Shown here piece by piece: positions 36,245 to 61,259 of a stretch of DNA of 64,000 nucleotides. The stretch's first letter is position 1; each line of letters opens with the position of its first letter. The translations under genes and the position numbers were made by a program. Source of the stretch: Candidatus Omnitrophota bacterium (GTDB taxonomy: Bacteria; Omnitrophota; Gorgyraeia; Duberdicusellales; 4484-171). Location: the NCBI GenBank assembly GCA_041652815.1, contig JBAZGN010000001.1, positions 509,855-573,854 on the forward strand, given 5' to 3'. The notes beneath the pieces were generated by a model, which saw only the letters and a list, made by a program, of their open reading frames with translations, was not told the origin of the DNA and ran no database searches.

Positions 36245-36328
36245 ATTTCTACCAATTTTCCGCCAGAGGCGGATCCGCCCACACATAAAAAGTCATCGGT
36301 GGCGGACAATCGAAATTAGTAGAAATTT
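36245..36328. repeat. Palindromic GC-core element, copy A (TIR aatttctac/gtagaaatt around core TCCGCCAGAGGCGGATCCGCC...GGTGGCGGA)
   Basis: The core at 36258-36307 is near-identical to cores at 41227-41271, 58146-58190 and 61189-61243. Confidence 0.6.
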
Positions 36329-36370
36329 GCTTCGCGAAATTCATAGCAATTAATTGTTTATAATTTTAAA

Positions 36371-37495
36371 ATGCGAATTGCGATAGTCCATGATTGGCTT
36401 ATTGGTATGCGCGGCGGAGAAAAGTGCCTTGAAGTTTTTTGTGAACTTTTCCCGCAGGCAGATATTTTTACTTTGCTTTACGATGGCTCTTCTGTTTCGC
36501 CGGTTATTTCGTGCATGCCGGTTAAGGCCTCCTTTATCCAGCATTTCCCTTTTGCTTTTAAAAAATACCGAAACTATCTTCCTTTTTTCCCCAGCGCTAT
36601 TGAAAGTTTCAATTTAACCGGATATGATTTCATATTGAGCTCAAGCCACTCTGTTGCGAAAGGAGCAAAAAAACCCAAAAATGCGTTTCATCTTTGCTAC
36701 TGCTATACGCCTATGCGCTATGTCTGGTCTTTTTTTGAACAATATTTCGGCTCCTACCCTTTCTTTAAGAAAAAAATAGTAGGTTATGTAACCAAGAACC
36801 TTAAAAAATGGGATTTAAAAACTCTGGATAGAGTTGATGAATTTGTTGCAATTTCTAAGACCATACAAAAAAGAATAAACGATATTTATAAAAGATCATC
36901 TCGCGTTATCTACCCCCCGGTTGATGTAGAAAAATTTACTTTAAATCGCAGCATCAAAAGAGAAGATTTTTATTTGTGCATTTCAGCACTTGTGCCTTAT
37001 AAACGTATTGATATAATTATAGATGCGTTTAATAGATGCCCGGATAAGAAAATATTTATAGTCGGGGACGGCCATCTAAGAAAAGAGCTTGAAAGAAAAA
37101 TTTCTTCGCAAAATATAAAACTTCTTGGCTGGGTAGGTGACCGTGACCTTATTGTTCTTTATCAGAAAGCAAAAGCATTTATCTACGCAGCAGAAGAGGA
37201 TTTTGGAATTTCTCCTCTTGAAGCACAGGCAACAGGCTCGGCTGTAATTGCTTTTGGTAAGGGCGGAGTGAACGAAACAATAATGCCGTTAGCTGATGGC
37301 CGCGGTAACGAACCCACGGGCATATTTTTTTATAAACAGGAAAGCGAAGCGTTAATTGAGGCAATTGATGAATTTGAAAAGCATGTTAATGAATTTGACC
37401 CTGTCCAGCTAAGAAATAACGCAGTTAAATTCAGCCGTGACAATTTCAAAAACAATTTTAGAAACTTGATCAAGGAAAAACTAAACCTAAATTGA
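36371..37495 (+). CDS. GT4 family glycosyltransferase
   Basis: MRIAIVHDWL.GMRGGEKCLE N-terminus typical of GT4 and ISPLEAQATGSAVIAF. Confidence 0.75.
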   Translation: MRIAIVHDWLIGMRGGEKCLEVFCELFPQADIFTLLYDGSSVSPVISCMPVKASFIQHFPFAFKKYRNYLPFFPSAIESFNLTGYDFILSSSHSVAKGAKKPKNAFHLCYCYTPMRYVWSFFEQYFGSYPFFKKKIVGYVTKNLKKWDLKTLDRVDEFVAISKTIQKRINDIYKRSSRVIYPPVDVEKFTLNRSIKREDFYLCISALVPYKRIDIIIDAFNRCPDKKIFIVGDGHLRKELERKISSQNIKLLGWVGDRDLIVLYQKAKAFIYAAEEDFGISPLEAQATGSAVIAFGKGGVNETIMPLADGRGNEPTGIFFYKQESEALIEAIDEFEKHVNEFDPVQLRNNAVKFSRDNFKNNFRNLIKEKLNLN

Positions 37496-37496
37496 T

Positions 37497-38894
37497 ATGC
37501 TGCATAAACTGGCTAAGAAAAAACTGACTGTTCATTATTTCGGATATTTGATACTGAATGATTTGATAATTGGTTTTATAGCGCTTTCTCTCTCTTATTG
37601 GTTTCGTTTCAATTCCAGTCTTTTTGATCTGCCTTTTGGCGTTCCTTCCTATGGTAACTACATATTGCCTTTTTTATCTATTGAAATTCTTCTTGTCATA
37701 CTTATCAATAGAGAGGGGCTTTACCGGATTGATTTTACAAAAAAATTCGTTGACCATGTTTTTTCGCTGATAAAAAGCATAGGCTTGGCAATGTTGCTTC
37801 TTTTGGCAGGCACATTTTTTTACAGAAATACGACCTATTCACGCTTACTTATATTGATAATAGGGTTTAATTTATCTCTTTTCCTGATTGTTTCGCGGCT
37901 CTTTTGGAGGCTTTTTTACGCAAAAAATGTTTTTGAAAAGGCCAAGAAAAAAATTTTAGTCTTAGGCAAACCGGAAACCATAAGCAAAATTACTGAACAC
38001 GTCGATTATTTTAACCGCTACGGAGATATTATCGGATTTGTTTCTACGCGTAAATCCGCTCATAGTCAAACGGGGCGATACATAGGCTCTATCGATAATT
38101 TTAATGATATTCTCGATAAGTATAAGCCTGACGAAGTAATACTTTCTGATTTGGAAATACCAAGAAAGGCAATTATCAATCTTATATTAGAATCGGAAAA
38201 AAGGCTTGTTACTTTTAAGATAGTAGCTGATCTTTTTGATATAATGATTCAGAAATTTGAAATAGAAAGCGTGGATGGGCTTAATCTCATAAAATTTAAA
38301 GAGTCTCCTTTGAGCTTTGCTTATAATAGATCTTTAAAAAGAAGCATTGATATGTTGGGGGCGTTTTTGGGGATAATCATGTTTTCCCCGGTATTCTTTA
38401 TTGTATCCTTAATCATCAAAGCGACATCAAAGGGCCCAATATTTTTTTCTCAGGAAAGAATAAGCGAGGAAGGAAAAGTTTTTAAAATCCATAAATTTAG
38501 AAGCATGTATCAAGGCGCAGAAAGCAAAACCGGACCGGTATTTGTTAAAAAAGATGATGGCCGTTGTACACCTATTGGAAAATTTTTAAGGAAATATAAT
38601 CTTGATGAAATACCTCAGTTATATAATGTTTTGTGGAGTGAGATGAGCTTGGTGGGGCCCCGGCCGGAGCGGCCTTTTTTTGTCGAACAATTCAAAGATG
38701 ATATACCAAGATATATGAGCAGGCACCATATAAAGTCCGGCATTACTGGTTGGGCCCAAATACACGGGCTTCGTCAGGGCACGCCAATTGAGGAAAGAGT
38801 AAGATATGATTTATATTATGCAGAGAACTGGTCAATCTGGCTTGATTTTAAAATTATTTTTCTTTCCTTTTTTGCTCTTAAGAATGCTTATTGA
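37497..38894 (+). CDS. Polyprenyl-phosphate hexose-1-phosphate transferase (WbaP/WcaJ-type initiating sugar transferase)
   Basis: KRSIDMLGAF...SPVFFIVSLIIK...GPIFFSQER.G..GK.F.I.KFRSM...DEIPQLYNVLWSEMSLVGPRPERP. Confidence 0.85.
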   Translation: MLHKLAKKKLTVHYFGYLILNDLIIGFIALSLSYWFRFNSSLFDLPFGVPSYGNYILPFLSIEILLVILINREGLYRIDFTKKFVDHVFSLIKSIGLAMLLLLAGTFFYRNTTYSRLLILIIGFNLSLFLIVSRLFWRLFYAKNVFEKAKKKILVLGKPETISKITEHVDYFNRYGDIIGFVSTRKSAHSQTGRYIGSIDNFNDILDKYKPDEVILSDLEIPRKAIINLILESEKRLVTFKIVADLFDIMIQKFEIESVDGLNLIKFKESPLSFAYNRSLKRSIDMLGAFLGIIMFSPVFFIVSLIIKATSKGPIFFSQERISEEGKVFKIHKFRSMYQGAESKTGPVFVKKDDGRCTPIGKFLRKYNLDEIPQLYNVLWSEMSLVGPRPERPFFVEQFKDDIPRYMSRHHIKSGITGWAQIHGLRQGTPIEERVRYDLYYAENWSIWLDFKIIFLSFFALKNAY

Positions 38895-39075
38895 TACACA
38901 GATGACAGACGCAGATGACCACAGATAAAGCTTGCGTCAATCGGTTGCGGTTACGCTGCTTGTATCGGTTGCGCCTTACGTCATGCGTCAGAAGAATAAT
39001 CTACGGGACGCGACCGAATAACCATAGACGAAACGAGCCGCGCAACCGTAAAACGCAACTAATTTTTTTAAATAA

Positions 39076-40284
39076 ATGCTTATCAGAAAACTTAATTATC
39101 TTAGCGAGTTTTTTCTCTGGATACTGGCATTTGGCATAACTTTGGCAAACGCCCCGACAGAAGTAAGCTCCTATTTTTTAATTGCTATTTTTTTAATAAA
39201 AATAATTATTTCAAGGGATACGAAATTTCTGCATTCCTTGATAGGTATATTATTCAGTTTGTTTTTTATCGTTGTGCTCATCTCTGCTATTTGCAGCCAA
39301 TATCCCGGTGAAAGCTGGAGAGGTTTTTCCAGAGTTCCAAAATATATTTTTCTGTTTTTTGCTTTATTGAGCCTTTTTAGTAGTGATAAAAAAATAATGT
39401 CACGTTTTTTCTGGGTAGTGATAGCTGCTTCAGCCATCACATTTTTAAACGGCATTTTCCAGAATATTTTTGGCTTTGATTTTTTCAGGCACAATTCCGT
39501 AAACTATTTGGATTATCTTCACCGAATACAATCTTCATTCATCGATGCAAACGATTTTGGCGCATATATAATTTCGGTTCTTCCCCTGACATTTTTATTT
39601 TTAAACCGTGGTTTTTCCAAAGCAAAACGTATTATGCTTTTTGTCGTTTGCTTATTGGGATTTTACTGCCTGATTAGAACTTCTTCCCGCGGTGCATGGT
39701 TGGGTTTTTTAGCGGGAATAAGTTTTTATTTTTTTGTCTATAATAAAAAAATTGCAATTGCCATACCAGTACTTGTTATCTTATTGCTGATAATAACGCC
39801 AAAAGGGCTTGACCGTGTTACCGGGCTTTTTAAGCAAGAAAAAAATACCGTCTGGGAAAGAACAGTCCTGTGGAAGTCTGCCTGGGGCATGATAAAAGAG
39901 CGGCCGGTGTTGGGACAAGGCGTAAATACCTTTTCTGAATATTTCCCAAAATACAAACCCGCTGATTATCCAGACCTTCGTTATGCGCACAATTCTTATC
40001 TGCAGATGTGGTCAGAAATTGGTATTGTAGGGCTATTGTTGTTTTTAAGCATCCCATTGGCTATACTAATTAGAACATTGCGCGGCATAAAGATAAAGGC
40101 AACCAAAGGTCCTTACGGCCTTATGCTGCTTGGTTTAATTGCGGGGTATACAGGATTTTTGGTGCACAGCATTTTCGATAACAACTTATTTTCCCTTATG
40201 CTTACTACTCTTTTTTGGGTAATGAGCGCTTATATTATTGCATTGAATAAAACATTTGCTAAGGAGCTATATGCCGAAAAATAA
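39076..40284 (+). CDS. O-antigen ligase / polymerase family protein (Wzy_C domain; WaaL-like)
   Basis: 10-12 transmembrane helices, and SRGAWLGFLAG...ERPVLGQGVNTF...AHNSYLQMWSEIGIVG. Confidence 0.75.
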   Translation: MLIRKLNYLSEFFLWILAFGITLANAPTEVSSYFLIAIFLIKIIISRDTKFLHSLIGILFSLFFIVVLISAICSQYPGESWRGFSRVPKYIFLFFALLSLFSSDKKIMSRFFWVVIAASAITFLNGIFQNIFGFDFFRHNSVNYLDYLHRIQSSFIDANDFGAYIISVLPLTFLFLNRGFSKAKRIMLFVVCLLGFYCLIRTSSRGAWLGFLAGISFYFFVYNKKIAIAIPVLVILLLIITPKGLDRVTGLFKQEKNTVWERTVLWKSAWGMIKERPVLGQGVNTFSEYFPKYKPADYPDLRYAHNSYLQMWSEIGIVGLLLFLSIPLAILIRTLRGIKIKATKGPYGLMLLGLIAGYTGFLVHSIFDNNLFSLMLTTLFWVMSAYIIALNKTFAKELYAEK

Positions 40285-41059
40285 AAATTATACGATAGCT
40301 GTCACTATTCCTTCAAAAAATTCAGAAAAAAAGATTGCAAACTGCTTAGCTTCAATTAAGGACTGGGCAGATGAAATAATAGTTTTGGATAGCGAAAGTA
40401 TTGATAAGACTGTTGAAATTGCTAAAAGTTTCGGCGCCAAAGTATTTGTTCATCCCTTTTTGGGCAGTTGGGCAAAAGAAAGAAATTTCGGAGCCGAACA
40501 GGCAAACAGCAATTGGATACTTTCATTAGATACAGATGAGGTGGTGAGTGAAGATTTTAAGAAAAAATGCGATGATGTCCTGCCTAATACAAAATGCGCC
40601 GCATTTAAATTCTGGAGAAAAAATTTCTTTTTAGGCCACCCTTTTCGTTACGGTGGCTGGTACCATAAATCGCAGCATCTCTATAACAAAAAATTTGCAC
40701 ACTATGAAGGCATGTTGCATGAAAAATATATAGTAAATGGAGAGGTTGGAGATTTAGATGCAGAGGTTTTACATTATCCTTTTGACAGTATATCAGAATT
40801 TATCGAACGGCAGAACCGTTATACCAGCATACAGGCGATAGAAATCATCGCCGAGGAAAAAGACCTGGATATTAAAAAAATAAAATATAATCTTACCTGG
40901 AAACCGCTAAAACTATTTAAGAAAATGTATTTTAACAAAAAAGGCTACAAAGAAGGAATGCACGGTTTGGTCTTTTCGATTCTTTTTTCCTGGGTGCATT
41001 TCGTAAAATGGGCTAAAGTGTGGGAAATATATAATAATTCAGACCAAAAATCTAAGTAA
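40271..41059 (+). CDS. GT2 family glycosyltransferase (WaaE/KdtX-like LPS core transferase)
   Basis: IAVTIPSKNSEKKIANCLASIKDWADEIIVLDSESIDKT...LSLDTDE. ATG at 40271 follows an AAGGAG RBS; the track's 40256 start is a TTG. Confidence 0.75.
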   Translation: MPKNKNYTIAVTIPSKNSEKKIANCLASIKDWADEIIVLDSESIDKTVEIAKSFGAKVFVHPFLGSWAKERNFGAEQANSNWILSLDTDEVVSEDFKKKCDDVLPNTKCAAFKFWRKNFFLGHPFRYGGWYHKSQHLYNKKFAHYEGMLHEKYIVNGEVGDLDAEVLHYPFDSISEFIERQNRYTSIQAIEIIAEEKDLDIKKIKYNLTWKPLKLFKKMYFNKKGYKEGMHGLVFSILFSWVHFVKWAKVWEIYNNSDQKSK

Positions 41060-41295
41060 AACTCTAAACCCGAAATCCTAAACCCTAAACAATCCACGAG
41101 CCAGAACAAAGTTCGGTTCGGGGTTGCCCAGAATCGAATTTATTCTGGTTCTGGGTAAAATCGAAACTACAAATCACAAACCCTAAACGTTTCGAGTTTG
41201 GAGTTTCGTGTTTGTGATTTGTTTAGAGTTTTCCGCCAGAGGCGGATCCGCCTTATTTTTTTAAGGTGGCGGACGAGTTTAGTGTTTAGAGTTTT
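41059..41295. repeat. MITE-like element, copy B (TIRs AAACTCTAAAC / GTTTAGAGTTT; CTAAAC heptad repeats; internal stem ACAAATCACAAAC/GTTTGTGATTTGT; GC core; ~70-nt nested palindromic insert at 41091-41160)
   Basis: Aligns base-for-base with 58036-58205 apart from the insert. The left TIR supplies the TAA stop of the upstream GT2 gene. Confidence 0.7.
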
Positions 41296-41318
41296 AATGA
41301 GGCCTAATTTAGCAAGCT

Positions 41319-42461
41319 ATGTTTAAAAAAATACTTATCGTAAGAATAGGAAATATCGGCGATGTCTTATTCGCGACTCCGGTTATACGGAAACTGAGAA
41401 AAGTTTTTGGTAATGCCCAAATAGACATTTTAACATCCCCCCAGGGCAAGGTTGTGGTAGAAAAGAGCCCTTATTTAAATAATATATTTATTTACAGGAA
41501 ATTCCATAAAATAGAACGCTGGTTTAAAAAAAGAAAACTGCTTAAGGGGTTATTATTAAATAAATATGATTTATGCGTTGTGCTTGAGTCTAATCTTGAA
41601 TATACAAAGTTTGCTTATGAAATATCCAGGCATGCCTTGCGCATCGGCATAGATAGTGAGTTTGGAAAAAAGTTCTTGCACAAAACAGAAGAATTTTCCC
41701 GTAAGCGCCATGCTGTAGAAAATTATCTCTCTGTTGTTTCAAAATTATTAAATATTGAGCTTGCAGGCGACGATTATTCCATGGATTTTTTCTTTACCCC
41801 GTTAGAGAAAGCCGCCGACAGAGTTGGCGATGGCTATCAAGACGAAGATAACGGCTTAAAACTACTATCGAGCAGAAGTTCTCTAACGGGGTTTACTACC
41901 TGTGCCGATAGTGGAAATTTAGGTAAAGAAAAAGGAAAAGGTTTTTTTATTGTTCATTCTTCCTGCAGCAGTTATCTTCCAAGTAAAAGCTGGGAGATTG
42001 ACAAATTTGCAGAGGTCGCTAAATATCTAACTATCCACGGTTTCAGCGTATTTATCACCGGTGCAATCTCTGATTGCGAGCCGAAATTACTTCTTGAGAA
42101 ATTAAAAAATGAAAAAAATATTCATAGTTTTATCGGCAAGAACCTATATGAAGTAGCCTCTCTTATAAAGCAAGCCAAAGGGGTCATTTGCTTAGATACA
42201 GGCATTCTTCATATAACCCGTGCCCTGAATAAACCCCTTGTTTGTTTGTTTGGCCCTTCTGACCCGCTTCACACCGGCCCAATCGGCCCGGGAATATATA
42301 AAGTAATTAGAAAAGATTTTCGCTGCGGGCCGTGCCAATATTTTGCCGATTATAATAAAAAACAAAAAGAGAAATGTTTGGATGGAAAAATTACTCCCTG
42401 CATGAAAGCGATAGAGGTAGAGGAGGTAATAAAGAGCCTTAATAGTATAATTGATGGATAA
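41319..42461 (+). CDS. GT9 family glycosyltransferase (heptosyltransferase-like)
   Basis: ILIVRIGNIGDVLFATPVIR...FFIVHSSCSSYLPSKSW...CLDTGILHI. Confidence 0.75.
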   Translation: MFKKILIVRIGNIGDVLFATPVIRKLRKVFGNAQIDILTSPQGKVVVEKSPYLNNIFIYRKFHKIERWFKKRKLLKGLLLNKYDLCVVLESNLEYTKFAYEISRHALRIGIDSEFGKKFLHKTEEFSRKRHAVENYLSVVSKLLNIELAGDDYSMDFFFTPLEKAADRVGDGYQDEDNGLKLLSSRSSLTGFTTCADSGNLGKEKGKGFFIVHSSCSSYLPSKSWEIDKFAEVAKYLTIHGFSVFITGAISDCEPKLLLEKLKNEKNIHSFIGKNLYEVASLIKQAKGVICLDTGILHITRALNKPLVCLFGPSDPLHTGPIGPGIYKVIRKDFRCGPCQYFADYNKKQKEKCLDGKITPCMKAIEVEEVIKSLNSIIDG

Positions 42462-43428: not shown

Positions 43429-43433
43429 TCATC

Positions 43434-43547
43434 TAAACGCGAATTATCGCGAATGTATACCTTTGTAAAATATTAAAGTATAAACGCTAATTTACGCGAA
43501 TGAATCTATTCGCGGCCATTCGCGTTTGATTAGCGAGAATCAGCGTT
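43434..43547. repeat. CGCGAAT-box intergenic element, copy R1 (contains the perfect IR CGCGAAT-gaatct-ATTCGCG at 43495-43514)
   Basis: Spans exactly from the upstream TAA to the ATG of the 43548 gene. The same ~120-nt pattern is at 54096-54221 and 61081-61259. Confidence 0.65.
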
Positions 43548-44345: not shown

Positions 44346-44478
44346 AACACAGTAGAAATACAATGGAAATACGGTAGAAATACAATTGTATTTCTATGTA
44401 TTTCACGAGCGAAGCGAGCATATTTCAACCGTATTTCTATTACATCTAAATCGCGCTTTACTTTAATCAACAAAAATA

Positions 44479-45696: not shown

Positions 45697-45871
45697 TCAA
45701 TAACCAAATTCTAATAACCAAACGGAAAAATCGATGGAATTGTTTGGTGATTGGTTATTGGAATTTGTTTGTATCTTGTATCTTGGTCATTGGTTATTTT
45801 ATGGGGTAATCCATACAACGAAGCAGTGTCGTAAACTATAAATTTCGTAATTCACGCGAGGTAGCGCAAGA

Positions 45872-47438: not shown

Positions 47439-47520
47439 ACTTCGAAAAGCTATCAGCTTTCGGCTTTCAGCTGCTGATAGCTTACGACTGATAGCTGAAA
47501 GCTTTCCCGGAGGTAATAAT

Positions 47521-48495: not shown

Positions 48496-48512
48496 GGGCA
48501 TATATTGGGCAT

Positions 48513-49005: not shown

Positions 49006-49006
49006 A

Positions 49007-53358: not shown

Positions 53359-54098
53359 CGATAGAAGAACTTTGTGTAAAATTACAGCAGAAAAGAAATA
53401 CTCTTGGGCTTACTCTTGAAGAGGTTGTTGAAAAAACCAAGTTGTACCCTTCCGTAATAAGAGATATAGAATCCGGCAGTTTAAGCAATATAAGTAATGC
53501 GTATCTTAAAGGCTACATAAAGATATATGCATCTTTTCTTAGCGTAGATGTTGAAGATGCGTTAGATAAAATTAATCTTGCTCAAGCCAACCTATCCAAG
53601 GTTGCGCCGGTAAAAGAGGAAAAACAGGTAGAGGAAAAACCAAAATTAAAGCTTAAGCCCCTGCCGCCAAAAGTTAAAAAAATTATTTTTTATTTGATAG
53701 CGCTAATATTTATTTTATGGATAGCAACGGGAGCGATTCGTTTCGTTTCAAAAAACTTTACAAAATTAGCGAAAAAACCTGTGAAAAGAACTGCAGCGGC
53801 AGTTATAAAAATTCCAGCCATTTCCAAAAAAATGCAAAATGAGGTTAATGCAGCGCTTACGGCAAAGAGAGATTGTTTTATAAGAACCAAGGTTGACGGT
53901 AAAGTTCTTTTTGAGGGAGTGATTAAAAAAGGAATGTCTGAAAGCTGGAAGGGAAATCGTGAAATAGAATTCAAGATAAGTGACGGCTCTGCCGTGTATC
54001 TCGAAGTAAACGGGAAATCTTTGCCATCCTTAACCTCTTCGTCAAAATCAATAAAAAGCCTGAAAGTAAACTCATCCGGAATCTCTATTGTTAAGTAA
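53355..54098 (+). CDS. rodZ: RodZ-like cytoskeleton protein (HTH_25 + TM + DUF4115)
   Basis: The N-terminal HTH (LGLTLEEVVEKTKLYPSVIRDIESG), a single transmembrane helix, and a C-terminal beta-rich domain. Confidence 0.6.
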   Translation: MTIEELCVKLQQKRNTLGLTLEEVVEKTKLYPSVIRDIESGSLSNISNAYLKGYIKIYASFLSVDVEDALDKINLAQANLSKVAPVKEEKQVEEKPKLKLKPLPPKVKKIIFYLIALIFILWIATGAIRFVSKNFTKLAKKPVKRTAAAVIKIPAISKKMQNEVNAALTAKRDCFIRTKVDGKVLFEGVIKKGMSESWKGNREIEFKISDGSAVYLEVNGKSLPSLTSSSKSIKSLKVNSSGISIVK

Positions 54099-54221
54099 AC
54101 GCGAATATTCGCAAATTTTAACCCTAATAGTTTCATTAAGGTATAAGCGCGAATTCACGCGAATGATTAAATAGTAATTTATTCGCGACTATTTGCGTTA
54201 GATTCGCGATAATTAGCGTAT
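54096..54221. repeat. CGCGAAT-box intergenic element, copy R2
   Basis: taaacgcgaatattcgc...aggtataagcgcgaattcacgcgaatg...ttattcgcgac...gattcgcgataattagcgtat abutting the ATG at 54222. Confidence 0.65.
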
Positions 54222-55496: not shown

Positions 55497-55621
55497 CACA
55501 GATAATCACAAATTTGAACCAGATTATCACAGATGATATGAATTCTGTAACACGTCACAGGTAACACGTTTTTAAAACGTGATACGTGTGACGTGTAACG
55601 TGATACCTGCTGTGTATTAAT

Positions 55622-56191
55622 ATGAACATCGCAAATTACCTCACATTCTTAAGGATTATCCTGGCATTTATCTGCATCGGATTTATACTGCATAATGATT
55701 TTAATTCAATCTTTATTGCCTTTATAATTTTTATTATTGCCTCGATAACTGACTTGCTTGATGGTATATTTGCCAGAAGGCAGAATCTTATATCGGACCT
55801 TGGAAAATTGCTTGATCCAATCGCCGATAAAATTTTAATCATCGGTGTATTCCTCGCGTTTTTGCAGCTTAAAGTAGTAGTAAATGCCTGGATGGTAAGC
55901 GTTATAATGCTTAGGGAATTTATTATTACGGGGCTACGGCTTTATGTTTTAAAATCAGGCGAAGTCCTTGAGGCAAAAAGGTGGGGCAAGCATAAAACGG
56001 TTTCACAAGTATTTGGGATAGTTGTAATTTTTATATCTTTGCTGCTTTTCAGAAAATTTCCTCAAAATAGCCTCGTTATTTTTCTATATGAAAAAGTAAC
56101 ACATGTAATAATGTGGTACGTTGTTCTTATCACTCTTTTTTCCGGCGTATCTTATTTTTGGATAAATAGAAAGTTGATAAAGACGTTTTAG
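55622..56191 (+). CDS. pgsA: CDP-diacylglycerol--glycerol-3-phosphate 3-phosphatidyltransferase
   Basis: NIANYLTFLRIIL and DLLDGIFARRQNLISDLGKLLDPIADK (CDP-alcohol phosphatidyltransferase motif). Confidence 0.85.
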   Translation: MNIANYLTFLRIILAFICIGFILHNDFNSIFIAFIIFIIASITDLLDGIFARRQNLISDLGKLLDPIADKILIIGVFLAFLQLKVVVNAWMVSVIMLREFIITGLRLYVLKSGEVLEAKRWGKHKTVSQVFGIVVIFISLLLFRKFPQNSLVIFLYEKVTHVIMWYVVLITLFSGVSYFWINRKLIKTF

Positions 56192-56282
56192 CAAAAAGGT
56201 TGAGGTTAAGGTTTAGGTTGAGAAATGCAAAGTTTAGTCTGATCCTTAACCTCAACCTTAGCCTTAACCTTCTTTTGGAACC

Positions 56283-56744
56283 ATGAAGAAGACATCTCTA
56301 TTAGATAAATTGTGCATAGCAATAACCACGCTTTTTGGAATCGGCTACGCACCACTTTTTAGCGGGACATTGGCTTCAGTTGTGGCAGTTATTGTTTTTC
56401 TGCTAATAAAAACAAGGCTCTACTTTTTGATTTTCACCGCTATCTCAATATTGCTTTCTTTTCTACTTGCCAGCCGTGCGGAAAAGATTTTTAAAGAAAA
56501 AGACTGCAAAAAAATAGTTATTGATGATTTCTCCGGTATGCTTTTAGCTCTTTTGCTTGTTCCTTATGATATTCGGTTTGTGGTTTGTGCCTTCATACTT
56601 TTCCGCGTATTTGACGCTTTTAAAATCCCACCCATAGATAAAATTGAACGGTTAAACGGCGCAGCAGGGGTTGTTGGTGATGACCTAATGGCTGGATTTT
56701 ATTCGCTGGTTGCGCTGCAGATAGTCAGATTGTTTGTGAGATAG
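56283..56744 (+). CDS. pgpA: Phosphatidylglycerophosphatase A
   Basis: GIGYAPLFSGTLASVVAV...VIDDFSGMLLALL...GAAGVVGDDLMAGFYS. Confidence 0.8.
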   Translation: MKKTSLLDKLCIAITTLFGIGYAPLFSGTLASVVAVIVFLLIKTRLYFLIFTAISILLSFLLASRAEKIFKEKDCKKIVIDDFSGMLLALLLVPYDIRFVVCAFILFRVFDAFKIPPIDKIERLNGAAGVVGDDLMAGFYSLVALQIVRLFVR

Positions 56745-56760
56745 AAACCAAAGTGGAGCC

Positions 56761-56785
56761 GTAGGACGTAAAGCGTGGGATGTCC
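56761..56785. repeat. Left inverted repeat (GGACGTAAAGCGTGGGATGTCC; ACGTNNN heptads) flanking the TPR gene
   Basis: 19 of 21 nt complementary to 57432-57466. Confidence 0.5.
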
Positions 56786-56929
56786 GCTCGCTTTGCTCGC
56801 TAGGACGAGAGACGAAAGAAAATGAAAGGGCGAAGATAGAAAGAATAAAATTTTTTACTTTATGGCCCCTGTGATAATCTATTACAGAGGGGTTTTAAAT
56901 GGTATAAGTTGTTACAAGAAAGGAGAACG

Positions 56930-57331
56930 ATGAAGAATAAAAAAATTATCGTAATTTCAATTGTTATACTTCTGTTACTTGCCATAATATACGGACTTTT
57001 TCTATTGAGACCTTTCTTTTGGTGGTGTAGGGGCAGCATCTATGAACAACAGCAACCAGAGCGGGCAATATATTATTTCAATAAGGCGATACTAATGAGG
57101 CCAGATTACGTAGAAGCATATTTTTATTCAAGGTTTAAAGGGGAAGGCAAAAATCTCTCAGCATATAGCGGTGGTTTAGCTGTTTGTTACCAGATTCTTG
57201 GCGAAAACGATAAAGCAAGAGAATATTATAATAAGGCACTCGAACTATATCATAAACACGGCGATAAAACAGGCGTTATAGTATTGATAAATGCTAATCT
57301 AAAATTACTAGATAATAGGAATAAAAAATAG
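56930..57331 (+). CDS. Small membrane-anchored tetratricopeptide-repeat protein
   Basis: N-terminal transmembrane helix and TPR-like AIYYFNKAILMRPDYVEAYF...AREYYNKALELY. ATG at 56930 follows an AAAGGAGAACG RBS; the track's 56909 start is a TTG. Confidence 0.55.
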   Translation: MKNKKIIVISIVILLLLAIIYGLFLLRPFFWWCRGSIYEQQQPERAIYYFNKAILMRPDYVEAYFYSRFKGEGKNLSAYSGGLAVCYQILGENDKAREYYNKALELYHKHGDKTGVIVLINANLKLLDNRNKK

Positions 57332-57431
57332 TTTAGATTATATTATTTATCTTTCTATGGATTTTTCTGTTTCTTCTGAATATAACCGATAGCAAAATTC
57401 ATCCAGTCAAAGCCACCTTCACCTTTCCGAG

Positions 57432-57466
57432 CTTCTATTGTCCACGTTCTACGTCCCACGTTTTAC
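57432..57466. repeat. Right inverted repeat flanking the TPR gene
   Basis: gtccacgttctacgtcccacgttttacgtcc; its reverse complement contains GGACGTAAAACGTGGGACGT. Confidence 0.5.
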
Positions 57467-57474
57467 GTCCTTCT

Positions 57475-58023
57475 TTATCCTTGTAACGGCGCGCAGAATA
57501 ATTTTTCATAAACCGGGCCGGTAGGCTTAAGTAGGCTTTTAAAAAGAATTATTTCGCTAACTGCAAACTTAGCTTCAATAGTCATACCTTTCATTTCATT
57601 CTTAAGGCAATCAATATTTCTTTTAGTTCGAAACCTTGCAATAGTAAGGTGAGATTTAAAACGGCCTTCCTTAGGAAAACCCAAGCTTTCAAGCTTATCT
57701 TCAAGCTGTAGGGAGATATTTTTTAATATTTCCTCATTGTCTGTTGATATAAAAAATACTCTCGGTGATGTTTCGTTAGGGAAAAAACCAAAGCTGCCTA
57801 CGTTAAGTTCCAATTGACTGAAATTACCGGCAGTTGTTTTTATTATATTTTTAATTTTATCGAGCTGTTCCTCAGAAACTTCCCCCAAAAACTTTAAAGT
57901 CATATGAATGTTTGAAGTATTAACCCATTTTGCATCTAAATCACATTTTTTAAGCCTGGTAACTGCGCGCGATAATTTTTCTTTTAAATCTTCCGGAATG
58001 TCTATGGCAATGAATAAACGCAT
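57475..58023 (-). CDS. thpR: RNA 2',3'-cyclic phosphodiesterase (2H family, LigT/ThpR)
   Basis: Two H-x-[TS]-x motifs (HMTLKFLG and HLTIARF); 182 aa. Confidence 0.8.
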   Translation of the reverse strand: MRLFIAIDIPEDLKEKLSRAVTRLKKCDLDAKWVNTSNIHMTLKFLGEVSEEQLDKIKNIIKTTAGNFSQLELNVGSFGFFPNETSPRVFFISTDNEEILKNISLQLEDKLESLGFPKEGRFKSHLTIARFRTKRNIDCLKNEMKGMTIEAKFAVSEIILFKSLLKPTGPVYEKLFCAPLQG

Positions 58024-58035
58024 ATTTTTTCTTAA

Positions 58036-58205
58036 AAACTCTAAATCCGAAACCCTAAACTCTAAACAAACTCGAAACTACAAATCACAAACTCTAAACG
58101 TTTCAAGTTTATGGTTTCGTGTTTGTAGTTTGTTTAGGATTTCCCGCCTTAGGCGGGTCCGCCTTATTTTTTAAAGGTGGCGGAAGAGTTTAGTGTTTAG
58201 AGTTT
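58036..58205. repeat. MITE-like element, copy C (same TIRs and GC core as copy B, lacking the nested insert)
   Basis: About 90% identical to 41059-41295 outside the insert. Its right TIR supplies the last codons and stop of the minus-strand cinA-like gene. Confidence 0.7.
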
Positions 58206-58663
58206 AACCTTCGGCATAATAAATCTACAGCCATTCGGCTTGCTTGTTTGCGGACATAATCCCTACTGCCCTTAAGCAGGATTTTTTTCGAAGCTACGCC
58301 ATATCTATCCGCAACAGCCATAAATATTGTGCCTACTTTTATACCCTTTTGAGCAGGGGCCGAGGCGAAACCTACCAAAGAAACCGCTAAATCTGTTTTA
58401 AAAAATTGTTTTGTTCGTTTCGCAAGAAGGATTGAAATGCTTTTAGAAACCCCTAGCGTTTTATTGAGCAGCGGCAGTGGTATGTGCAGCAATTTATTTT
58501 TGCTTTCCGGAGAATAAACTATGAGCCCGCCTTTAAATACCTTAGAGCTTCCGGGTGTTTTTGTCAGCAGATAAGATAAATAACCACCGCTTACGGATTC
58601 AACCGCAGATATTGTTAATTTTTTGATACGCAGATAAAAAATTAAATTTTTCAATTTAGCCAT
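58190..58663 (-). CDS. CinA C-terminal domain protein (nicotinamide-nucleotide amidohydrolase PncC-like)
   Basis: LTISAVESVSGGYLS...LGVS..SI...GAVS...MA..LA.........DLAVSLVGFASAP. Confidence 0.75.
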   Translation of the reverse strand: MAKLKNLIFYLRIKKLTISAVESVSGGYLSYLLTKTPGSSKVFKGGLIVYSPESKNKLLHIPLPLLNKTLGVSKSISILLAKRTKQFFKTDLAVSLVGFASAPAQKGIKVGTIFMAVADRYGVASKKILLKGSRDYVRKQASRMAVDLLCRRLNSKH

Positions 58664-58816
58664 ATCAATATTTTACCAAACTTACGGTTTTAAGCCAGCT
58701 ATAAGTATCATTAAAGCAGAATAGCCTCATTTGCTGCCTTTTACCAGGCAAAATGCTTCTGTTGTTAAGCGGAATTTTAGGGCAGAAAAGCATCAATTCT
58801 GGGTAGACTTAAACCT

Positions 58817-58846
58817 TTGACACCGGCACGCCGCCTGCGTTATAAT
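58817..58846 (+). promoter_or_regulatory. Sigma70-type promoter TTGACA-18-TATAAT for the ldh-like gene
   Basis: ttgaca at 58817-58822 and tataat at 58841-58846. AAGAGGAG RBS lies before the ATG at 58900. Confidence 0.55.
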
Positions 58847-58899
58847 ATACGCCTAAAAAGGTATAAATCGTGGCTATAATTATAAAAAGAGGAGCAAAA

Positions 58900-59841
58900 A
58901 TGCTTATACCAAAAGTTTCAATTATAGGCAGCGGCAATGTAGGCATGCGTTATGCTTATAGCTTAATGATGGCTAATCTTGCACGTTCCATAGTTATTTT
59001 TGATATCGATAAGAAACGAACGGAAGGCGAAGCCATGGACCTTGCAAGCTGTATGCCGTTTGTTTCGCCCGTTGATATTGCCGTCGGAGATTACCCTGAC
59101 TTAAAAGGCTCGGATATTATAGTTATCACTGCCGGAGCAAAACAGAAACCAGGCGAGAACCGGCTCGGCCTGGCAAAGCAAAACGTAGGTATATATAAAG
59201 AGATAATTCCTAAAATAATGAAATATGCCGAAGGGGCAATATTTATCATAGTGACAAACCCGGTAGATGTACTTAGCTACGCAGCTTACAAAATCTCTCA
59301 AAAACCATGGCAGGAAATTATTGGTTCGGGAACAGTATTGGATAGCGCAAGGTTTCGGCTATTGCTATCCAAGCATTGCAATGTAGATGCCCGTAATGTT
59401 CATGCTTATATATTGGGTGAGCATGGAGACAGTGAGTTTCCTGTATGGAGCCGCGCAATGATTGGGGGAGTTTTATTCAAAGATTATTGTCCGATGTGCA
59501 ATAAATGCAATGCAAAAACTACCCTTCCCGGGATATTTAATGAGGTTAAGAATTTTGCCTATGAAATTATCCAAAGAAAAGGGGAAACTTCTTACGGTGT
59601 AGGCCTTGCGCTTACCAGAATAACCAGTGCTATTTTAAAAGACGAAAGTTCTATTTTACCGGTTTCTTCTTTGGTAGATAATTATTATGATGTGGGTGGC
59701 GTTTATATGAGCGTGCCGGCGGTTGTAGATAAAAAAGGCGTAAGAGAACTTCTTAAGCTTAAACTTGAACCAGAAGAAATCTCTAATTTTCAAGAATCAG
59801 CTAAGCTTATAAAAGAGGTTATAAAGTCAAGCGGATTATGA
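58900..59841 (+). CDS. L-lactate/malate dehydrogenase family protein (LDH-like)
   Basis: VSIIGSGNVG, ITAGAKQKPGENRL, and GEHGDSEFPVWS catalytic-His region. ATG at 58900; the track's 58870 start is a GTG. Confidence 0.75.
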   Translation: MLIPKVSIIGSGNVGMRYAYSLMMANLARSIVIFDIDKKRTEGEAMDLASCMPFVSPVDIAVGDYPDLKGSDIIVITAGAKQKPGENRLGLAKQNVGIYKEIIPKIMKYAEGAIFIIVTNPVDVLSYAAYKISQKPWQEIIGSGTVLDSARFRLLLSKHCNVDARNVHAYILGEHGDSEFPVWSRAMIGGVLFKDYCPMCNKCNAKTTLPGIFNEVKNFAYEIIQRKGETSYGVGLALTRITSAILKDESSILPVSSLVDNYYDVGGVYMSVPAVVDKKGVRELLKLKLEPEEISNFQESAKLIKEVIKSSGL

Positions 59842-59971
59842 ACCCCGCCCTTCCTGGGAAACGCAGAAGTTGAGAGGGAAGGGCGGGGTGAACCCAGCCC
59901 TTCCTAAGAAGGCGCAGGGGCTCAAAGGAAGGTCTGGGATAAAAATAATAATTTTAAAAAGGAAGGGCTGG

Positions 59972-60682
59972 GTGAAAGAAGCAAGAATAAAATTCATCGA
60001 AAAAATAAAAAGAACTTCCACTATCACAAGTTTCCGGTTTTTACCGCGCGAAAAAATAGATTTTATTCCCGGACAATTCCTGCAGCTCCTGTTCGATGAG
60101 AATAACAGGAAAAATAAAGGCTTGAATAAATATCTTTCATTTTCCTGTTCGCCGCAAAAGCCGTATATAGAAGTTACCAAACGCCTAAGCGAAAGTGAAT
60201 TCTCACGTAAACTTATTAATCTGGATAAAGGCGATGAAATATTAGCACAAGCTCCACTTGGAAATGTTGTCTTCCGGCAGGAAATGAGAAATATCACCTT
60301 TCTTATAGGCGGTATAGGCATAACTCCGGTTATCTCTATATTGGAATATATATGCGAGAAGAATTTAGATACTAATGCACTTGTGTTTTATTCAAACAGG
60401 AGCGAGGAAGATATAGCGTTTAGAGAGGATCTTGATTCTTTGTGCCGCACAAACAAAAATATAAAAATAATCTATACGATAACCGATTGTGCGCCGATAA
60501 ATGACGCGTGCGTATTTGGCCGTATAGACAAGAATTTAATAGAAGAGAAAACTTCCGATTTGGCGAAACGCATAGTTTTTATCTATGGCCCGCCCGGAAT
60601 GGTTACGGCTATGAAGGGGTTATGCTTCGATTTGGGCTGCGAAAAAGAAAACGTGCAAATAGAGAATTTTATCGGTTACTAA
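59972..60682 (+). CDS. FAD/NAD(P)-binding oxidoreductase, ferredoxin-NADP+ reductase-like
   Basis: ITSFRF..R...FIPGQFL FAD-binding barrel and GGIGITPVISILEY NAD-binding motif. Probable GTG start at 59972; the track's 59870 TTG start runs through terminator-like hairpins. Confidence 0.6.
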   Translation: MKEARIKFIEKIKRTSTITSFRFLPREKIDFIPGQFLQLLFDENNRKNKGLNKYLSFSCSPQKPYIEVTKRLSESEFSRKLINLDKGDEILAQAPLGNVVFRQEMRNITFLIGGIGITPVISILEYICEKNLDTNALVFYSNRSEEDIAFREDLDSLCRTNKNIKIIYTITDCAPINDACVFGRIDKNLIEEKTSDLAKRIVFIYGPPGMVTAMKGLCFDLGCEKENVQIENFIGY

Positions 60683-60742
60683 TAATAGAAGGGGGACTGC
60701 GGATGAACGCAATGACCGTGCGTAAATCCGTTTTTATATCTA

Positions 60743-60804
60743 CCCCGCCTCGCCTATATATGTGGTAAATTTTTCAAGAAAAATTTACCACAAGCTCGGC
60801 GGGG
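60743..60804 (+). terminator. Compound perfect hairpin (CCCCGCC...TGTGGTAAATTTTT-caag-AAAAATTTACCACA...GGCGGGG) between the FNR-like and nifU-like genes
   Basis: 14-bp inner stem plus 7-bp GC outer stem. No canonical U-tract, so the role (terminator or other) is uncertain. Confidence 0.4.
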
Positions 60805-60849
60805 TTAAATCGTCCAGCCTTTGGCTGGACAATTTAAGGAGGTCCAATT

Positions 60850-61077
60850 ATGCTAAAAGAAAAAGTAGAAAACGCGCTAAAAGGAATAAGGCCAGCTCTT
60901 CAGGCAGACGGCGGAGATGTTGAACTTGTTGAGGTAACTGAAGATGGTGTAGTTAAGCTGCGCCTTAAGGGCGCTTGCGGGTGTTGTCCCATGAGCACTT
61001 ATACTTTAAAAATGGGGATTGAACAGCGCCTGAAAGAAGAAATTCCCGAGGTTAAAAAAGTAGAACAGGTCAAATGA
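60850..61077 (+). CDS. NifU-like (Nfu-type) Fe-S cluster carrier domain protein
   Basis: 75 aa; [39 protein letters not shown]. Confidence 0.8.
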
Positions 61078-61080
61078 GAG

Positions 61081-61259
61081 GCACGAATGCGCGCGAATTT
61101 AAACCTTGATAGTTTGTAAGGTATAAACGCGAATACTCGCGAATAGAAAAATAGTTGGGAACAAAATTATTCGCGGCCATTCGCATTTCCGCCCCCAGGC
61201 GGATTCGCCTAAACAGTTATAATTGTGGTGGCGAAGATTCGCGACAATTAGCGTTAGGA
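61081..61259. repeat. CGCGAAT-box intergenic element, copy R3, with a nested GC-core hairpin (CCGCCCCCAGGCGGATTCGCC...GGTGGCGAA)
   Basis: Shares the taaacgcgaat...ttattcgcgg...gattcgcgacaattagcgtt scaffold with R1 and R2, plus a 55-nt insertion matching the family-1 GC core. Confidence 0.65.

Follow-up and report, generated by a model that had tools for sequence, protein, structure and literature searches.

We found that a GC-rich double hairpin of 42–48 nt recurs four times in a 64-kb stretch of Omnitrophota DNA (hereafter the window), and we consider it probable, at about 0.72, that this module is a non-autonomous miniature mobile DNA element, likely moved in trans, that has spread through AT-rich genomes. 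The initial annotation had described four GC-core hairpin copies, and all four were recovered on the forward strand, with limits moved by only a few bases (Table 1). They share the consensus (T/C)CCGCC-N3/4-GGCGG(A/G)-T(C/T)CGCC-N12-18-GGT-GGCG(G/A)A, which is predicted to fold into two consecutive hairpins in direct (tandem) orientation, arm 1 pairing with arm 2 and arm 3 with arm 4 in perfect 6-bp GC helices. Copy 1 reads TCCGCC-AGA-GGCGGA, after which TCCGCC and GGT-GGCGGA enclose an AT-rich loop of 18 nt. Copy 3 consists of CCCGCC-TTA-GGCGGG, with a compensatory C-G closing pair, and then TCCGCC...GGCGGA, while copy 4 joins TCCGCC-CCCA-GGCGGA to TTCGCC...GGT-GGCGAA, with a compensatory U-A pair in hairpin 2. 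The two hairpins had at first been read as alternatives to each other, which they are not; the central palindrome GGCGGATCCGCC does permit a pairing of arms 2 and 3.

Table 1 Module copies, their host scaffolds and empty paralogous sites in the window (module limits are refined and include the sixth base pair; ^ marks the insertion point)
Feature	Position	Strand	Length	Covariance model score	Remarks
Module copy 1	36259–36306	+	48 nt	61.8 bits	
Module copy 2	41232–41273	+	42 nt	64.1 bits	
Module copy 3	58143–58184	+	42 nt	62.6 bits	
Module copy 4	61188–61235	+	48 nt	43.9 bits	
Scaffold A, 141-nt repeat with copy 1	36220–36360	+			Between two GT4 glycosyltransferase genes
Scaffold B, 41-kb copy with module copy 2	41057–41297	+			MITE-like composite, repeat families D1 + D3
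Scaffold B, 58-kb copy with module copy 3	58034–58207	+			Occupies ligT–cinA spacer
Scaffold C, CGCGAAT-box element filled with copy 4	61124–61262	+			Repeat families D2 + D6, alignment
CGCGAAT-box element, empty paralogue	43434–43547	+			Site TTCGCGTTT^GATTAGCG
CGCGAAT-box element, empty paralogue	54096–54221	+			Site TTTGCGTTA^GATTCGCG

The pattern CCGCC-N3-5-GGCGGRTYCGCC matched the window four times and was absent from 100 dinucleotide-preserving shuffles, and GGTGGCGRA matched five times against 0.41 expected, with four of the five matches inside modules. The covariance model that had been proposed as a check, here built from 28 family members, found exactly these four copies (44–64 bits) and no further one in the 64 kb. 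The window is AT-rich, as first remarked, though the early figure of ~33% GC was slightly low: GC content was 0.30–0.41 per 2 kb and 0.36 overall. The worry that the motif might be a common low-complexity GC island was not borne out in AT-rich genomes; chance matches do arise in GC-rich ones. No module body had a match in Rfam (Rfam 15, 4227 covariance models, gathering and E-value thresholds), and our literature searches found no published description of the double hairpin. A sub-threshold Lig_thermometer match (21.7 bits) touched the first bases of copy 3 and lay mainly on the AT-rich scaffold.

The comparison of filled and empty sites revealed that the module is an insertion in its behaviour, with empty paralogous and orthologous sites and recurrence in different scaffolds and contexts. 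Copy 4, correctly placed inside a CGCGAAT-box element by the initial annotation, is a clean 47-nt block missing from two paralogous elements. The ligT–cinA spacer measures 166 nt in the window and 15–55 nt in five syntenic Omnitrophota orthologues (82–84% LDH identity); none of the five has copy 3 or its scaffold, and no module was found in the 10–21 kb around each. Three host scaffolds were counted rather than the two unrelated ones first proposed, namely the 141-nt repeat, a 'tttagag' MITE-like element and the CGCGAAT-box element. Scaffold A, with its flanking inverted repeat AATTTCTAC/GTAGAAATT, is 91.5% identical over 141 nt to L051:2750–2890, which lies in an unrelated gene neighbourhood and also carries the module. 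Scaffold B at 41 kb has terminal inverted repeats AAAACTCTAAAC/GTTTAGAGTTTT and an additional hairpin insert of ~66 nt (41081–41146), and its DNA fold z-score is −8.6, against −6.6 for the 58-kb copy. Scaffold B also occurs without the module at L004:1490–1620, an empty copy only ~65% identical to the filled ones, so that its junction is not readable exactly. Direct 7–8-mers flank the modules (ATTCGCG and GTTTAGAG, with CGCAGAT in other MAGs). Together with the module-free occurrence of one scaffold and some 74 relatives elsewhere, these sites uphold the early suggestion of a modular mobile hairpin in unrelated repeat contexts. No polymorphism within one species was observed, and we therefore make no claim of recent movement in this lineage.

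Collection scans recovered ~74 non-redundant relatives from Omnitrophota, Patescibacteria and other MAGs; 30 plausible loci came from the genome contig collection, mainly from Omnitrophota with Patescibacteria and other MAGs in addition, and further loci from metagenomes. The family set was collected with sequence patterns, so that most stem positions were fixed by the search. At the single stem pair left free, 21 of 28 members had U-A, six had C-G and one was unpaired. In addition, the variant stems TGCGCC/GGCGCA, TCAGCC/GGCTGA, CTCGCC/GGCGAG, TCCGCT/AGCGGA, TTCGCC/GGCGAA and CCCGCC/GGCGGG are all complementary. Comparison of the aligned sequences showed that compensatory substitutions, present in the window copies and in the family stems alike, keep both predicted stems; the initial annotation had asked for such changes. 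Loop 2 is AT-rich (8–23 nt) with a conserved GGT at its 3′ side. Orientation relative to flanking genes was mixed (13 same/same, 7 opposite/opposite and 4 divergent), no copies were seen inside protein-coding sequence, and locus GC skew oriented by the module ran from −0.21 to +0.17 with no trend, a weak test on such short loci.

We then found that insertion is precise and without target-site duplication at R-A-T-T-T^G-A-A-C-C sites, a flank consensus that resembles the antisense strand of the tRNA T-arm. Among 69 non-redundant flanks, T occupied −2 in 51 and −1 in 50; on the 3′ side there was R at +1 in 52, A at +2 in 50 (T in none), A at +3 in 42 and C at +5 in 33. The module has landed in other repeats, in tRNA-derived T-loops and an anticodon loop, and in a tmRNA loop. 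Its removal in silico restored a 7-nt T-loop (TTC^GAAT, TTC^AAAT or TT^CAAGT) in L003, L016, L027 (two cases), L006, L078, L135, L082, L128 and L093, and an anticodon loop, CTTG^GAAA (CTTGGAAA), in L027; no duplication was found in the T-loops, in this anticodon loop or at copy 4. ARAGORN reported a tRNA in L006 and L078 only once the module had been excised. The module lies antisense in the tRNA-derived sequence of L003, L016, L027, L006, L078 and L135 and sense in L082, L128, L093 and at L027:3516. Most of the host 'tRNAs' are fragments or degenerate, L006 having mismatched acceptor and T stems and L078 having C33. A tRNA gene lay within 300 nt of 15 of the 74 copies, compared with 5% of positions in the same loci. 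In L018 the module forms a 49-nt insertion within a hairpin loop of a full-length tmRNA (114.8 bits). Hairpin-tip locations were enriched, with flanking stems of at least 5 bp at 14.5% of copies and in 4.1% ± 2.3% of shuffled pairings; some copies occupy the tip of a hairpin that was already there.

The unit of the putative mobile element is a 6-bp stem TCCGCC/GGCGGA, the first unit closing a 3–4-nt loop and the second, directly adjoining, closing the AT-rich 8–23-nt loop that ends in GGT. Because the two units adjoin, the outermost arms form 6-bp terminal inverted repeats around the central palindrome. In the mechanism that we propose, a structure-specific enzyme would copy or move the module in trans, probably recognising its identical hairpin pair in DNA that is single-stranded or extruded. 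Our best guess is an HUH/Y1-type transposase like those of REP/RAYT systems or of PATEs derived from IS200/IS605, and a site-specific recombinase with T-loop specificity would be the alternative. The lack of a consistent orientation relative to GC skew argues against strictly lagging-strand-directed single-stranded DNA transposition of the IS200/IS605 type; the module stops at the very feet of its hairpins, with no space for IS608-type guide or cleavage sequences, and a REP-type GTAG box is absent from it. The module might plausibly be a protein-binding site in the sense of a recognition site for its moving enzyme. We found no transposase, recombinase or reverse transcriptase in or beside any module copy, and the 34–64-kb part of the window has housekeeping and glycosyltransferase genes only. 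The likeliest view of the four window copies is that they are neutral passengers, and any effect on downstream genes, as an RNA hairpin in the 5′ UTR or as the terminator-like fold of copies 2 and 3, would be secondary.

A bolder version, which we regard as rather unlikely, is an undescribed transposition or homing system that recognises T-loop-like DNA (TTY^GAA), pastes in a 45-nt hairpin cassette without duplication and remodels the tRNA clusters of CPR/Patescibacteria. If true, such remodelling would yield T-loop, anticodon-loop and D-loop inserts as well as complete tRNA genes nested in disrupted copies of the same isoacceptor. Should some interrupted tRNA or tmRNA genes also be functional, with the insert removed or tolerated, they would be a bacterial counterpart of the non-canonical tRNA introns or split tRNAs of archaea.

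The positions of the window copies also bear on a host cis-regulatory role, in which the module would be an attenuator or terminator (a 2:3 hairpin with a U-run against 1:2 and 3:4), an mRNA-stabilising hairpin or a regulator-binding site. Three of the four lie 27–64 nt upstream of same-strand start codons: copy 1 is 64 nt from the ATG at 36371, copy 2 is 45 nt from a heptosyltransferase (GT9) gene and copy 4 is 27 nt from the ATG (61263) of a Fer4_5 gene. The four complementary segments permit alternative folds, in copies 2 and 3 the central palindrome and the TTATTTTTT after it score as terminator-like (in the 2:3 fold alone), and same-sense orientation is in modest excess across loci (13 versus 7). 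However, copy 3 is antisense to both of its neighbours, ligT and cinA, with no U-run in its reverse complement, and loop 2 starts T-rich in only 17 of 74 family members. The genes that follow the module have no relation to one another (in the window GT4, GT9 and Fer4_5; elsewhere, tRNA clusters or tmRNA), the orthologous loci do without the module and no Rfam family matches, which together make this role improbable.

The proximity to tRNA genes could instead suggest that small integrative elements, with a tyrosine or serine recombinase specific for the tRNA T-loop, have the module as their end or left it as an att-site scar, a recombinase-binding core that stayed behind at tRNA-gene junctions and was dispersed later. 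Within tRNA genes, integrases classically target the T-loop and the anticodon loop, as Williams is said to have set out in 2002. The tRNA association is strong, and duplicated tRNA 3′ ends go with it: in L082, L128 and L162 intact tRNAs are followed by fragments made up of T-arm, acceptor and CCA, and in L066 the 3′ end of a tRNA-Ala is duplicated over 9 bp (GGCTCCATG). The module also holds dyad-symmetric arms of 5–6 bp. Yet in most cases the module has an intact T-stem on either side of it, indicating simple insertion into a loop and not a crossover junction. None of the loci examined has an integrase gene close by, the copies in the window have no relation to tRNA genes and the 3-nt arm spacing is unlike that of known core sites, so that we hold a scar of this kind to be as improbable as regulation.

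Still less probable, in our view, is an intervening sequence acting at the RNA level, a mini-intron or IVS-like insert excised or processed from tRNA and tmRNA transcripts that would spread by reverse insertion into RNA loops and reverse transcription, with intergenic copies as by-products. Precise, duplication-free insertion into 7-nt tRNA-like loops and into a full-length tmRNA is consistent with this, as are the termini TCCGCCA/TGGCGGA, which can pair and lengthen the host stem, and the several hairpin inserts per tRNA-like gene and nested tRNA genes of CPR-like loci; RNA-mediated spread has been proposed for yeast mitochondrial GC clusters (PMC4478555). Against it, the module occurs in both orientations in tRNA-derived sequence, its hosts there are mostly fragments or degenerate (L006, L078), the four window copies lie in no RNA gene, and it is far below group I/II intron size with 6-bp stems too short for RNase III. 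The two orientations, the mixed gene orientation and the missing Rfam match also told against the early idea of a dedicated small structured RNA. An archaeal-type tRNA intron was rejected: the TTC/GAAT residues of the T-loop lie opposite one another in an internal loop that separates the T stem from the terminal helix of the module, so there is no bulge-helix-bulge, nor are there 3-nt bulges staggered by 4 bp at the junctions. Group I/II introns (>200 nt) were rejected on size, 42–48 nt, and on the lack of an Rfam match.

On our best reading, a mobile double hairpin would be comparable to REP/REPIN sequences, Rickettsia palindromic elements (RPE) and mitochondrial GC clusters. REP/REPIN are short, GC-rich, extragenic palindromes that are non-autonomous, multicopy and conserved in structure, are recognised as hairpins and occur as doublets (PMC3116915). 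The module is likewise short, GC-rich, palindromic, non-autonomous, multicopy and structure-conserved. However, a REPIN comprises two inverted REPs in one long hairpin, whereas the module has two direct hairpins with identical stems; a REP is a 20–40-nt imperfect palindrome after GTAG, whereas the module follows RATTT with perfect 6-bp stems; and REPs are species-specific, whereas the module family spans several phyla with near-identical stems. The annotated neighbours in the 64-kb window and the 8–20-kb loci, as opposed to whole genomes, include no Y1 transposase or RAYT. RPEs, at ~100–150 bp, are larger than the 42–48-nt module, often lie in frame in protein-coding genes and are confined to Rickettsia, and differ from it also in that the module has a T-loop-like target and was not seen in coding sequence. 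They resemble it as selfish palindromic repeats that enter functional genes in a reduced, AT-rich genome, and the tmRNA gene of R. bellii, which is interrupted by one RPE (PMC1458961), offers a parallel to the insertion seen in the L018 tmRNA.

Mitochondrial GC clusters and double-hairpin elements (yeast GC42, Allomyces DHE and sponge RHE) are GC-rich palindromic inserts of ~40–50 nt dispersed in very AT-rich genomes that merge and nest into new composites and transfer horizontally, and no transposase is known for them (PMC4478555; see also PMC2800124). The module shares the GC-rich palindromic form, the AT-rich setting, sporadic presence, merger and nesting, by analogy and not by descent. DHE reportedly has a two-hairpin architecture, as Paquin et al. 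are said to have described in 2000. A putative AG target duplication accompanies yeast GC clusters (PMC4478555), and the module differs in having none, in its unrelated sequence and in being bacterial rather than organellar. Cyanobacterial small dispersed repeats (SDRs) offer a further likeness, as very small hairpin repeats; the module is similarly flanked by direct 7–8-mers. According to what Elhai et al. reportedly found in 2008, they are mobile, 21–27 nt long, mutually nested and set among short tandem heptamer repeats, and we know of no enzyme for them. They differ in sequence, size and lineage, and a T-loop-like target and tRNA/tmRNA insertion are not known to us from SDRs. PATEs (palindrome-associated transposable elements) derived from IS200/IS605 also have a pair of similar, equally oriented hairpins at their two ends, lack a terminal duplication and insert 3′ of a short, specific target sequence (the module prefers 5′ TT). 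They exceed 100 nt, place their guide and cleavage sequences beyond the hairpins and have a strong strand bias relative to replication, whereas the hairpins of the module are terminal and not subterminal, its 3′ flank GAA is also constrained and no skew bias was seen. The outer arms TCCGCC...GGCGGA recall the inverted repeats of MITEs (DDE-transposon derivatives), though 6 bp is short for a MITE and the fixed-length target-site duplication is absent at module sites.

Omnitrophota and CPR are large lineages of uncultivated bacteria with small genomes, and their non-coding DNA has, to our knowledge, received little study. That a 45-nt element has nearly the same stems across several phyla implies either horizontal spread or a conserved trans-acting enzyme specific for hairpin and T-loop, and we know of neither described for these lineages. 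If a mobilising activity were found, it would constitute a very compact DNA insertion system specific for both sequence and structure. Because the module breaks up tRNA-like and tmRNA genes, these are missed or mis-called by standard tRNA finders. It also forms composite repeats that may break assemblies and mislead intergenic annotation, and in L120 the module was found nested within itself.

The four copies of the GC-rich double-hairpin module reported in the initial annotation were all present where it had placed them, on the plus strand, and all four lie between genes. The core pattern CCGCC-N3-5-GGCGGRTYCGCC matched at four places in the window and nowhere in 100 shuffles that preserved dinucleotides, and GGTGGCGRA matched it five times against 0.41 expected, the module 3′ ends accounting for four of the five. 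A covariance model built from 28 family members returned exactly the four copies from the 64-kb window (44-64 bits), when weaker reverse-strand shadows of the same copies were set aside. Each copy folds into two consecutive hairpins, the first joining arms 1 and 2 over a 3-4-nt loop and the second joining arms 3 and 4 around an AT-rich loop of 12-18 nt with GGT at its end. Predicted folding energies ranged from -19.5 to -26.3 kcal/mol and z-scores from -2.1 to -4.1. The hairpins had been described as alternatives; we found that they form together, although pairing of arm 2 with arm 3 is possible through the central palindrome GGCGGATCCGCC. The suggested check for compensatory changes revealed two in the window: hairpin 1 of copy 3 closes with C...G in place of T...A, and hairpin 2 of copy 4 is TTCGCC/GGCGAA in place of TCCGCC/GGCGGA.

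Positions of the module copies and related features (L-numbers are loci from other genomes and metagenomes)
Feature	Position or locus	Strand	Remarks
Module copy 1	36259-36306	+	Limits with closing base pair counted; between two GT4 genes
Module copy 2	41232-41273	+	Limits with closing base pair; between GT2 and GT9 genes
Module copy 3	58143-58184	+	Limits with closing base pair; between ligT and cinA, antisense to both
Module copy 4	61188-61235	+	Limits with closing base pair; between nifU and Fer4_5 gene
CGCGAAT-box element, ~110-140 nt	43434-43547, 54096-54221, 61124-61262		Immediately precedes three start codons of unrelated genes
T-loop-restoring cases	L003, L016, L027 (two), L006, L078, L135, L082, L128, L093, others		

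The window comes from the chromosome of a Candidatus Omnitrophota bacterium. The L-lactate dehydrogenase encoded there shares 82-84% identity with proteins ascribed to Omnitrophica/Omnitrophota MAGs, and the GT9 protein also occurs on ENA assembly ERZ27247363. No transposase-like gene was found among the annotated genes at 34-64 kb, and a tRNA search of the window found no tRNA gene, so that the link between the module and tRNA comes only from other genomes. We took it as a coincidence that the flank of copy 1 (AATTTCTAC...GTAGAAATT) is similar to a Cas12a repeat.

The initial annotation had recognized two unrelated repeat scaffolds, whereas we found three: a 141-nt repeat (copy 1), a MITE-like composite termed scaffold B (copies 2 and 3) and the CGCGAAT-box element, in which copy 4 does sit, as annotated. 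Three-way alignment of this element with its two paralogues revealed that a 47-nt block of copy 4, CCGCC...GGCGAA, corresponds to one clean gap in both, with the flanks TTCGC(G/A)TT(T/A) and GATT(A/C)GCGA aligning on either side and no duplication. Scaffold B is bounded by the terminal inverted repeats AAAACTCTAAAC/GTTTAGAGTTTT and is strongly structured inside (DNA fold z-scores -8.6 and -6.6); within MAG DBS2-5.bin57 it occurs with the module at L004:6366-6552 and in L034, and without it at L004:1490-1620. Five syntenic loci from related Omnitrophota share the order PNPase, FtsK, RodZ, MiaB-like, PgsA, PgpA, ligT, cinA, ldh onward; their ligT-cinA spacer is 15-55 nt compared with 166 nt in the window, and the covariance model found no module in these loci (10-21 kb each). 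A repeat 91.5% identical to the 141-nt one (36220-36360), module included, was found amid unrelated genes in L051. Hence, presence or absence of the module is independent of the scaffold.

Further features of the scaffolds were observed. The CGCGAAT-box element holds the direct repeats TAAACGCGAAT-N3-CGCGAAT and ATTCGCG and is followed by GT2, MiaB-like radical-SAM and Fer4_5 genes, and in two copies the similarity extends into the first ~10 codons of the gene (repeat family D16); the element could be a shared promoter/operator or another mobile repeat. When window positions 61078-61262 were compared with loci L039-L045, the orthologues were seen to encode, between nifU and Fer4_5, a protein of 171 aa without a Pfam match. 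This protein is missing from the window, where the CGCGAAT-box element and module take its place. The 41-kb copy of scaffold B contains an additional hairpin-forming insert of ~66 nt at 41081-41146 (GCCCAGAATCGAATTTATTCTGGTTCTGGGT and neighbouring sequence), missing from the 58-kb copy and from the L004 and L034 relatives; this is a second nested insertion, different from the module. In other MAGs (L017, L035, L011, L005, L002; L013, L015, L122) the module lies between genome-specific direct 7-8-mers, namely CGCAGAT/CACAGAT, CTGCGAT and GGTCATTG/GGTGCTTG, to which ATTCGCG and GTTTAGAG are the window parallels.

Scans of other collections extended the family. When one genome per species was scanned with the exact pattern, 35 loci were returned, ~30 of them plausible members. 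Candidatus Omnitrophota MAGs supply most of these, and the others come from Patescibacteria, Buchananbacteria, Edwardsbacteria, Victivallales and MAGs labelled Planctomycetia or Gammaproteobacteria; L001, L007, L019 and L022 were dropped as chance matches of high GC. A metagenome scan using the right-hand two thirds of the module gave at least 117 loci, at least ~45 of them real members, so that copy numbers are lower bounds, and it was diluted by chance matches within GC-rich coding sequence. Standard hairpin 1 was absent in 94 of the 117 metagenome matches listed, about half of these 94 clearly being chance. The one match in the viral collection, L038, falls in a long stretch without coding sequence, next to restriction-modification, LexA-methylase and TnsA-like genes, a setting that is uninformative. 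We looked for versions that are autonomous or bear cargo and found no ORF, only subfamilies with hairpin-1 loops of 9-27 nt among the metagenome matches listed and one self-nested copy (L120:6001-6082), in which the loop of hairpin 1 in a canonical module holds a variant double hairpin (TGCC-AGA-GGCA, then TGCGCC-TTT-GGTGCA).

Conservation of the module is at the level of structure, kept as two hairpins. In the family alignment, which was pattern-selected and leaves the closing pair of hairpin 1 as the only free pair, that pair is U-A in 21 members, C-G in six and unpaired in one; none of 500 shuffles reached the observed covariation score, and pairing was lost when the partners were slid. The model or a generic double-hairpin search also recovered fully complementary variant stems, both in hairpin 2 (TGCGCC/GGCGCA, TCCGCT/AGCGGA, TTCGCC/GGCGAA, CCCGCC/GGCGGG) and in hairpin 1 (TCAGCC/GGCTGA, CTCGCC/GGCGAG, CCCGCC/GGCGGG), which are existence proofs and give no unbiased rate because the generic search demanded perfect pairing and the model rewards it. 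Loop 2, the loop of hairpin 2, is 75% A+T and 8-23 nt long without the GGT on its 3′ side. This GGT was demanded by the scans that gathered the family and is mostly kept in variants found by the model only (GGT in L014, L034 and L027:3588; TGT or none in L025, L003:4424 and L027:2771). The small structured RNA that the initial annotation had offered as an alternative gained no support, as no Rfam family matches the module: neither the whole window at the gathering threshold nor both module regions at an E-value threshold gave a match over the module body. A sub-threshold Lig_thermometer match (21.7 bits) touches the first bases of copy 3 and lies mainly on the AT-rich scaffold.

We found that the insertion target is biased. 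Among 69 non-redundant flanks, the 5′ side has R at -5 in 55, T at -3 in 36, T at -2 in 51 and T at -1 in 50, and the 3′ side has R at +1 in 52, A at +2 in 50 (never T), A at +3 in 42 and C at +5 in 33. The consensus RATTT^GAACC resembles the antisense strand of the tRNA T-arm (GGATTC^GAACC). Excision of (T/C)CCGCC...GGCGG(A/G) from many copies outside the window gives a 7-nt T-loop again, with intact T-stems on both sides; the insertion points are mostly 56|57 and sometimes 55|56, in both orientations. One copy splits an anticodon loop exactly (L027, CTTG|GAAA), and ARAGORN detects the tRNAs of L006 (tRNA-Pro) and L078 (tRNA-Ala) only once the module has been removed in silico. Furthermore, 15 of 74 copies lie <300 nt from a tRNA gene, compared with 5% of positions in the same loci. 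The tRNA-derived hosts are mostly 3′ fragments adjoining intact tRNA genes, or degenerate genes, suggesting that insertions persist where they are harmless. In L018:6352-6792 (minus strand), a full-length Omnitrophota tmRNA (Rfam 114.8 bits, model positions 1-374, tag reading frame, tag peptide ANYDAVAEAEAILSSEALVAA, CCA end) has the loop of its first pseudoknot hairpin interrupted by the module, an insert of 49 nt. A minority of copies, 14.5% versus 4.1% +/- 2.3% in shuffled pairings, have flank stems of at least 5 bp that put the module at a hairpin tip. No target-site duplication was found in any copy examined.

Collectively, the module is a discrete unit of 42-48 nt bounded by 6-bp terminal inverted repeats, which some copies of an otherwise homologous site have and others lack. 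It is inserted precisely at a preferred sequence and nests in other repeats and in itself. These properties support the initial proposal of a modular mobile hairpin, and we regard the module as a selfish miniature mobile element with a probability of about 0.7. A regulatory role as attenuator, terminator or stabiliser is improbable: GGCGGATCCGCC followed by TTATTTTTT in copies 2 and 3 is terminator-like, but such a role is at odds with the remaining 57 of the 74 family members and with the antisense placement of copy 3, and does not account for orthologues without the element. We also think it unlikely that the module is the scar of an integrative element, which would account for tRNA 3′ duplications in L066, L082, L128 and L162 but leaves both the intact T-stems on either side of the module and the window copies unexplained. 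Excision at the RNA level, as of an intron- or IVS-like insert, is made attractive by the tRNA and tmRNA hosts but is very unlikely, as the module is found in either orientation within tRNA-derived sequence, forms no bulge-helix-bulge motif, is too small for group I/II introns and has stems too short for RNase III, and its tRNA hosts are degenerate. On anatomical grounds, we rejected BHB-intron, group I/II intron and RNase III-IVS identities.

As a mobile element, the module would be non-autonomous and would depend for its movement on a trans-acting enzyme able to read the hairpins. We favour an HUH/Y1-type activity that is structure-specific and works on single strands, like those behind REP/RAYT and IS200/IS605-derived PATEs, because the two hairpins are identical and in the same orientation, there is no duplication and the 5′ target is short. 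Module orientation showed no trend with local GC skew, and the module ends abut the hairpins, both of which count against such a mover; no HUH/Y1 gene was seen near modules in the window region and the loci examined. It is possible but doubtful that a HUH-type enzyme specifically moves the module, and the main alternative would be a T-loop-specific recombinase.

By function, the module would belong with other small mobile palindromic repeats. Cyanobacterial small dispersed repeats are such repeats found amid heptamer repeats, which the 7-8-mer flanks of the module recall. REP/REPIN sequences are further examples (PMC3116915), but the module has no GTAG box and no inverted doublet. One Rickettsia palindromic element sits in a tmRNA gene (PMC1458961), an insertion common to both families, and the GC clusters or double-hairpin elements of mitochondria merge, nest and cross species (PMC4478555), as the module does. 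Unlike MITEs, the module makes no duplication; it lacks the defining features of introns and resembles PATEs only in part. Its combination of a direct double hairpin, no duplication, a T-loop-like target and a cross-phylum distribution would thus make it distinct. Literature searches found no published description of the module in Omnitrophota or CPR; the family is apparently undescribed and widespread in poorly known phyla, and its affinity for tRNA-like loops is unusual, making it more than an ordinary repeat.

Additional arrangements were observed at tRNA loci. In three CPR-like loci (L027:2520-2850, L135:1290-1530 approximately and L016:960-1220), a complete tRNA gene lies within the anticodon loop of a disrupted gene for the same isoacceptor, an arrangement that is not known to us from the literature. 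The nested genes are tRNA-Ser UGA and tRNA-Pro UGG, inverted repeats bracket the inner gene, and the outer gene also has hairpin inserts in its D-loop and T-loop. In the tRNA clusters L162:4500-5700 and L130:3590-4640, a T-arm-like fragment with a double-hairpin variant comes after almost all of the tRNAs, at least four such variants occurring in ~1 kb of L162. In the rRNA-operon spacer L066:1195-1300 (minus-strand view; tRNA-Ile, tRNA-Ala), the module has paired flanks GAGGAGTT/CAACTCTCC and lies between the two copies of a 9-bp direct repeat, GGCTCCATG, which takes in the tRNA-Ala 3′ end, and a scaffold-B repeat without the module lies between the two tRNA genes.
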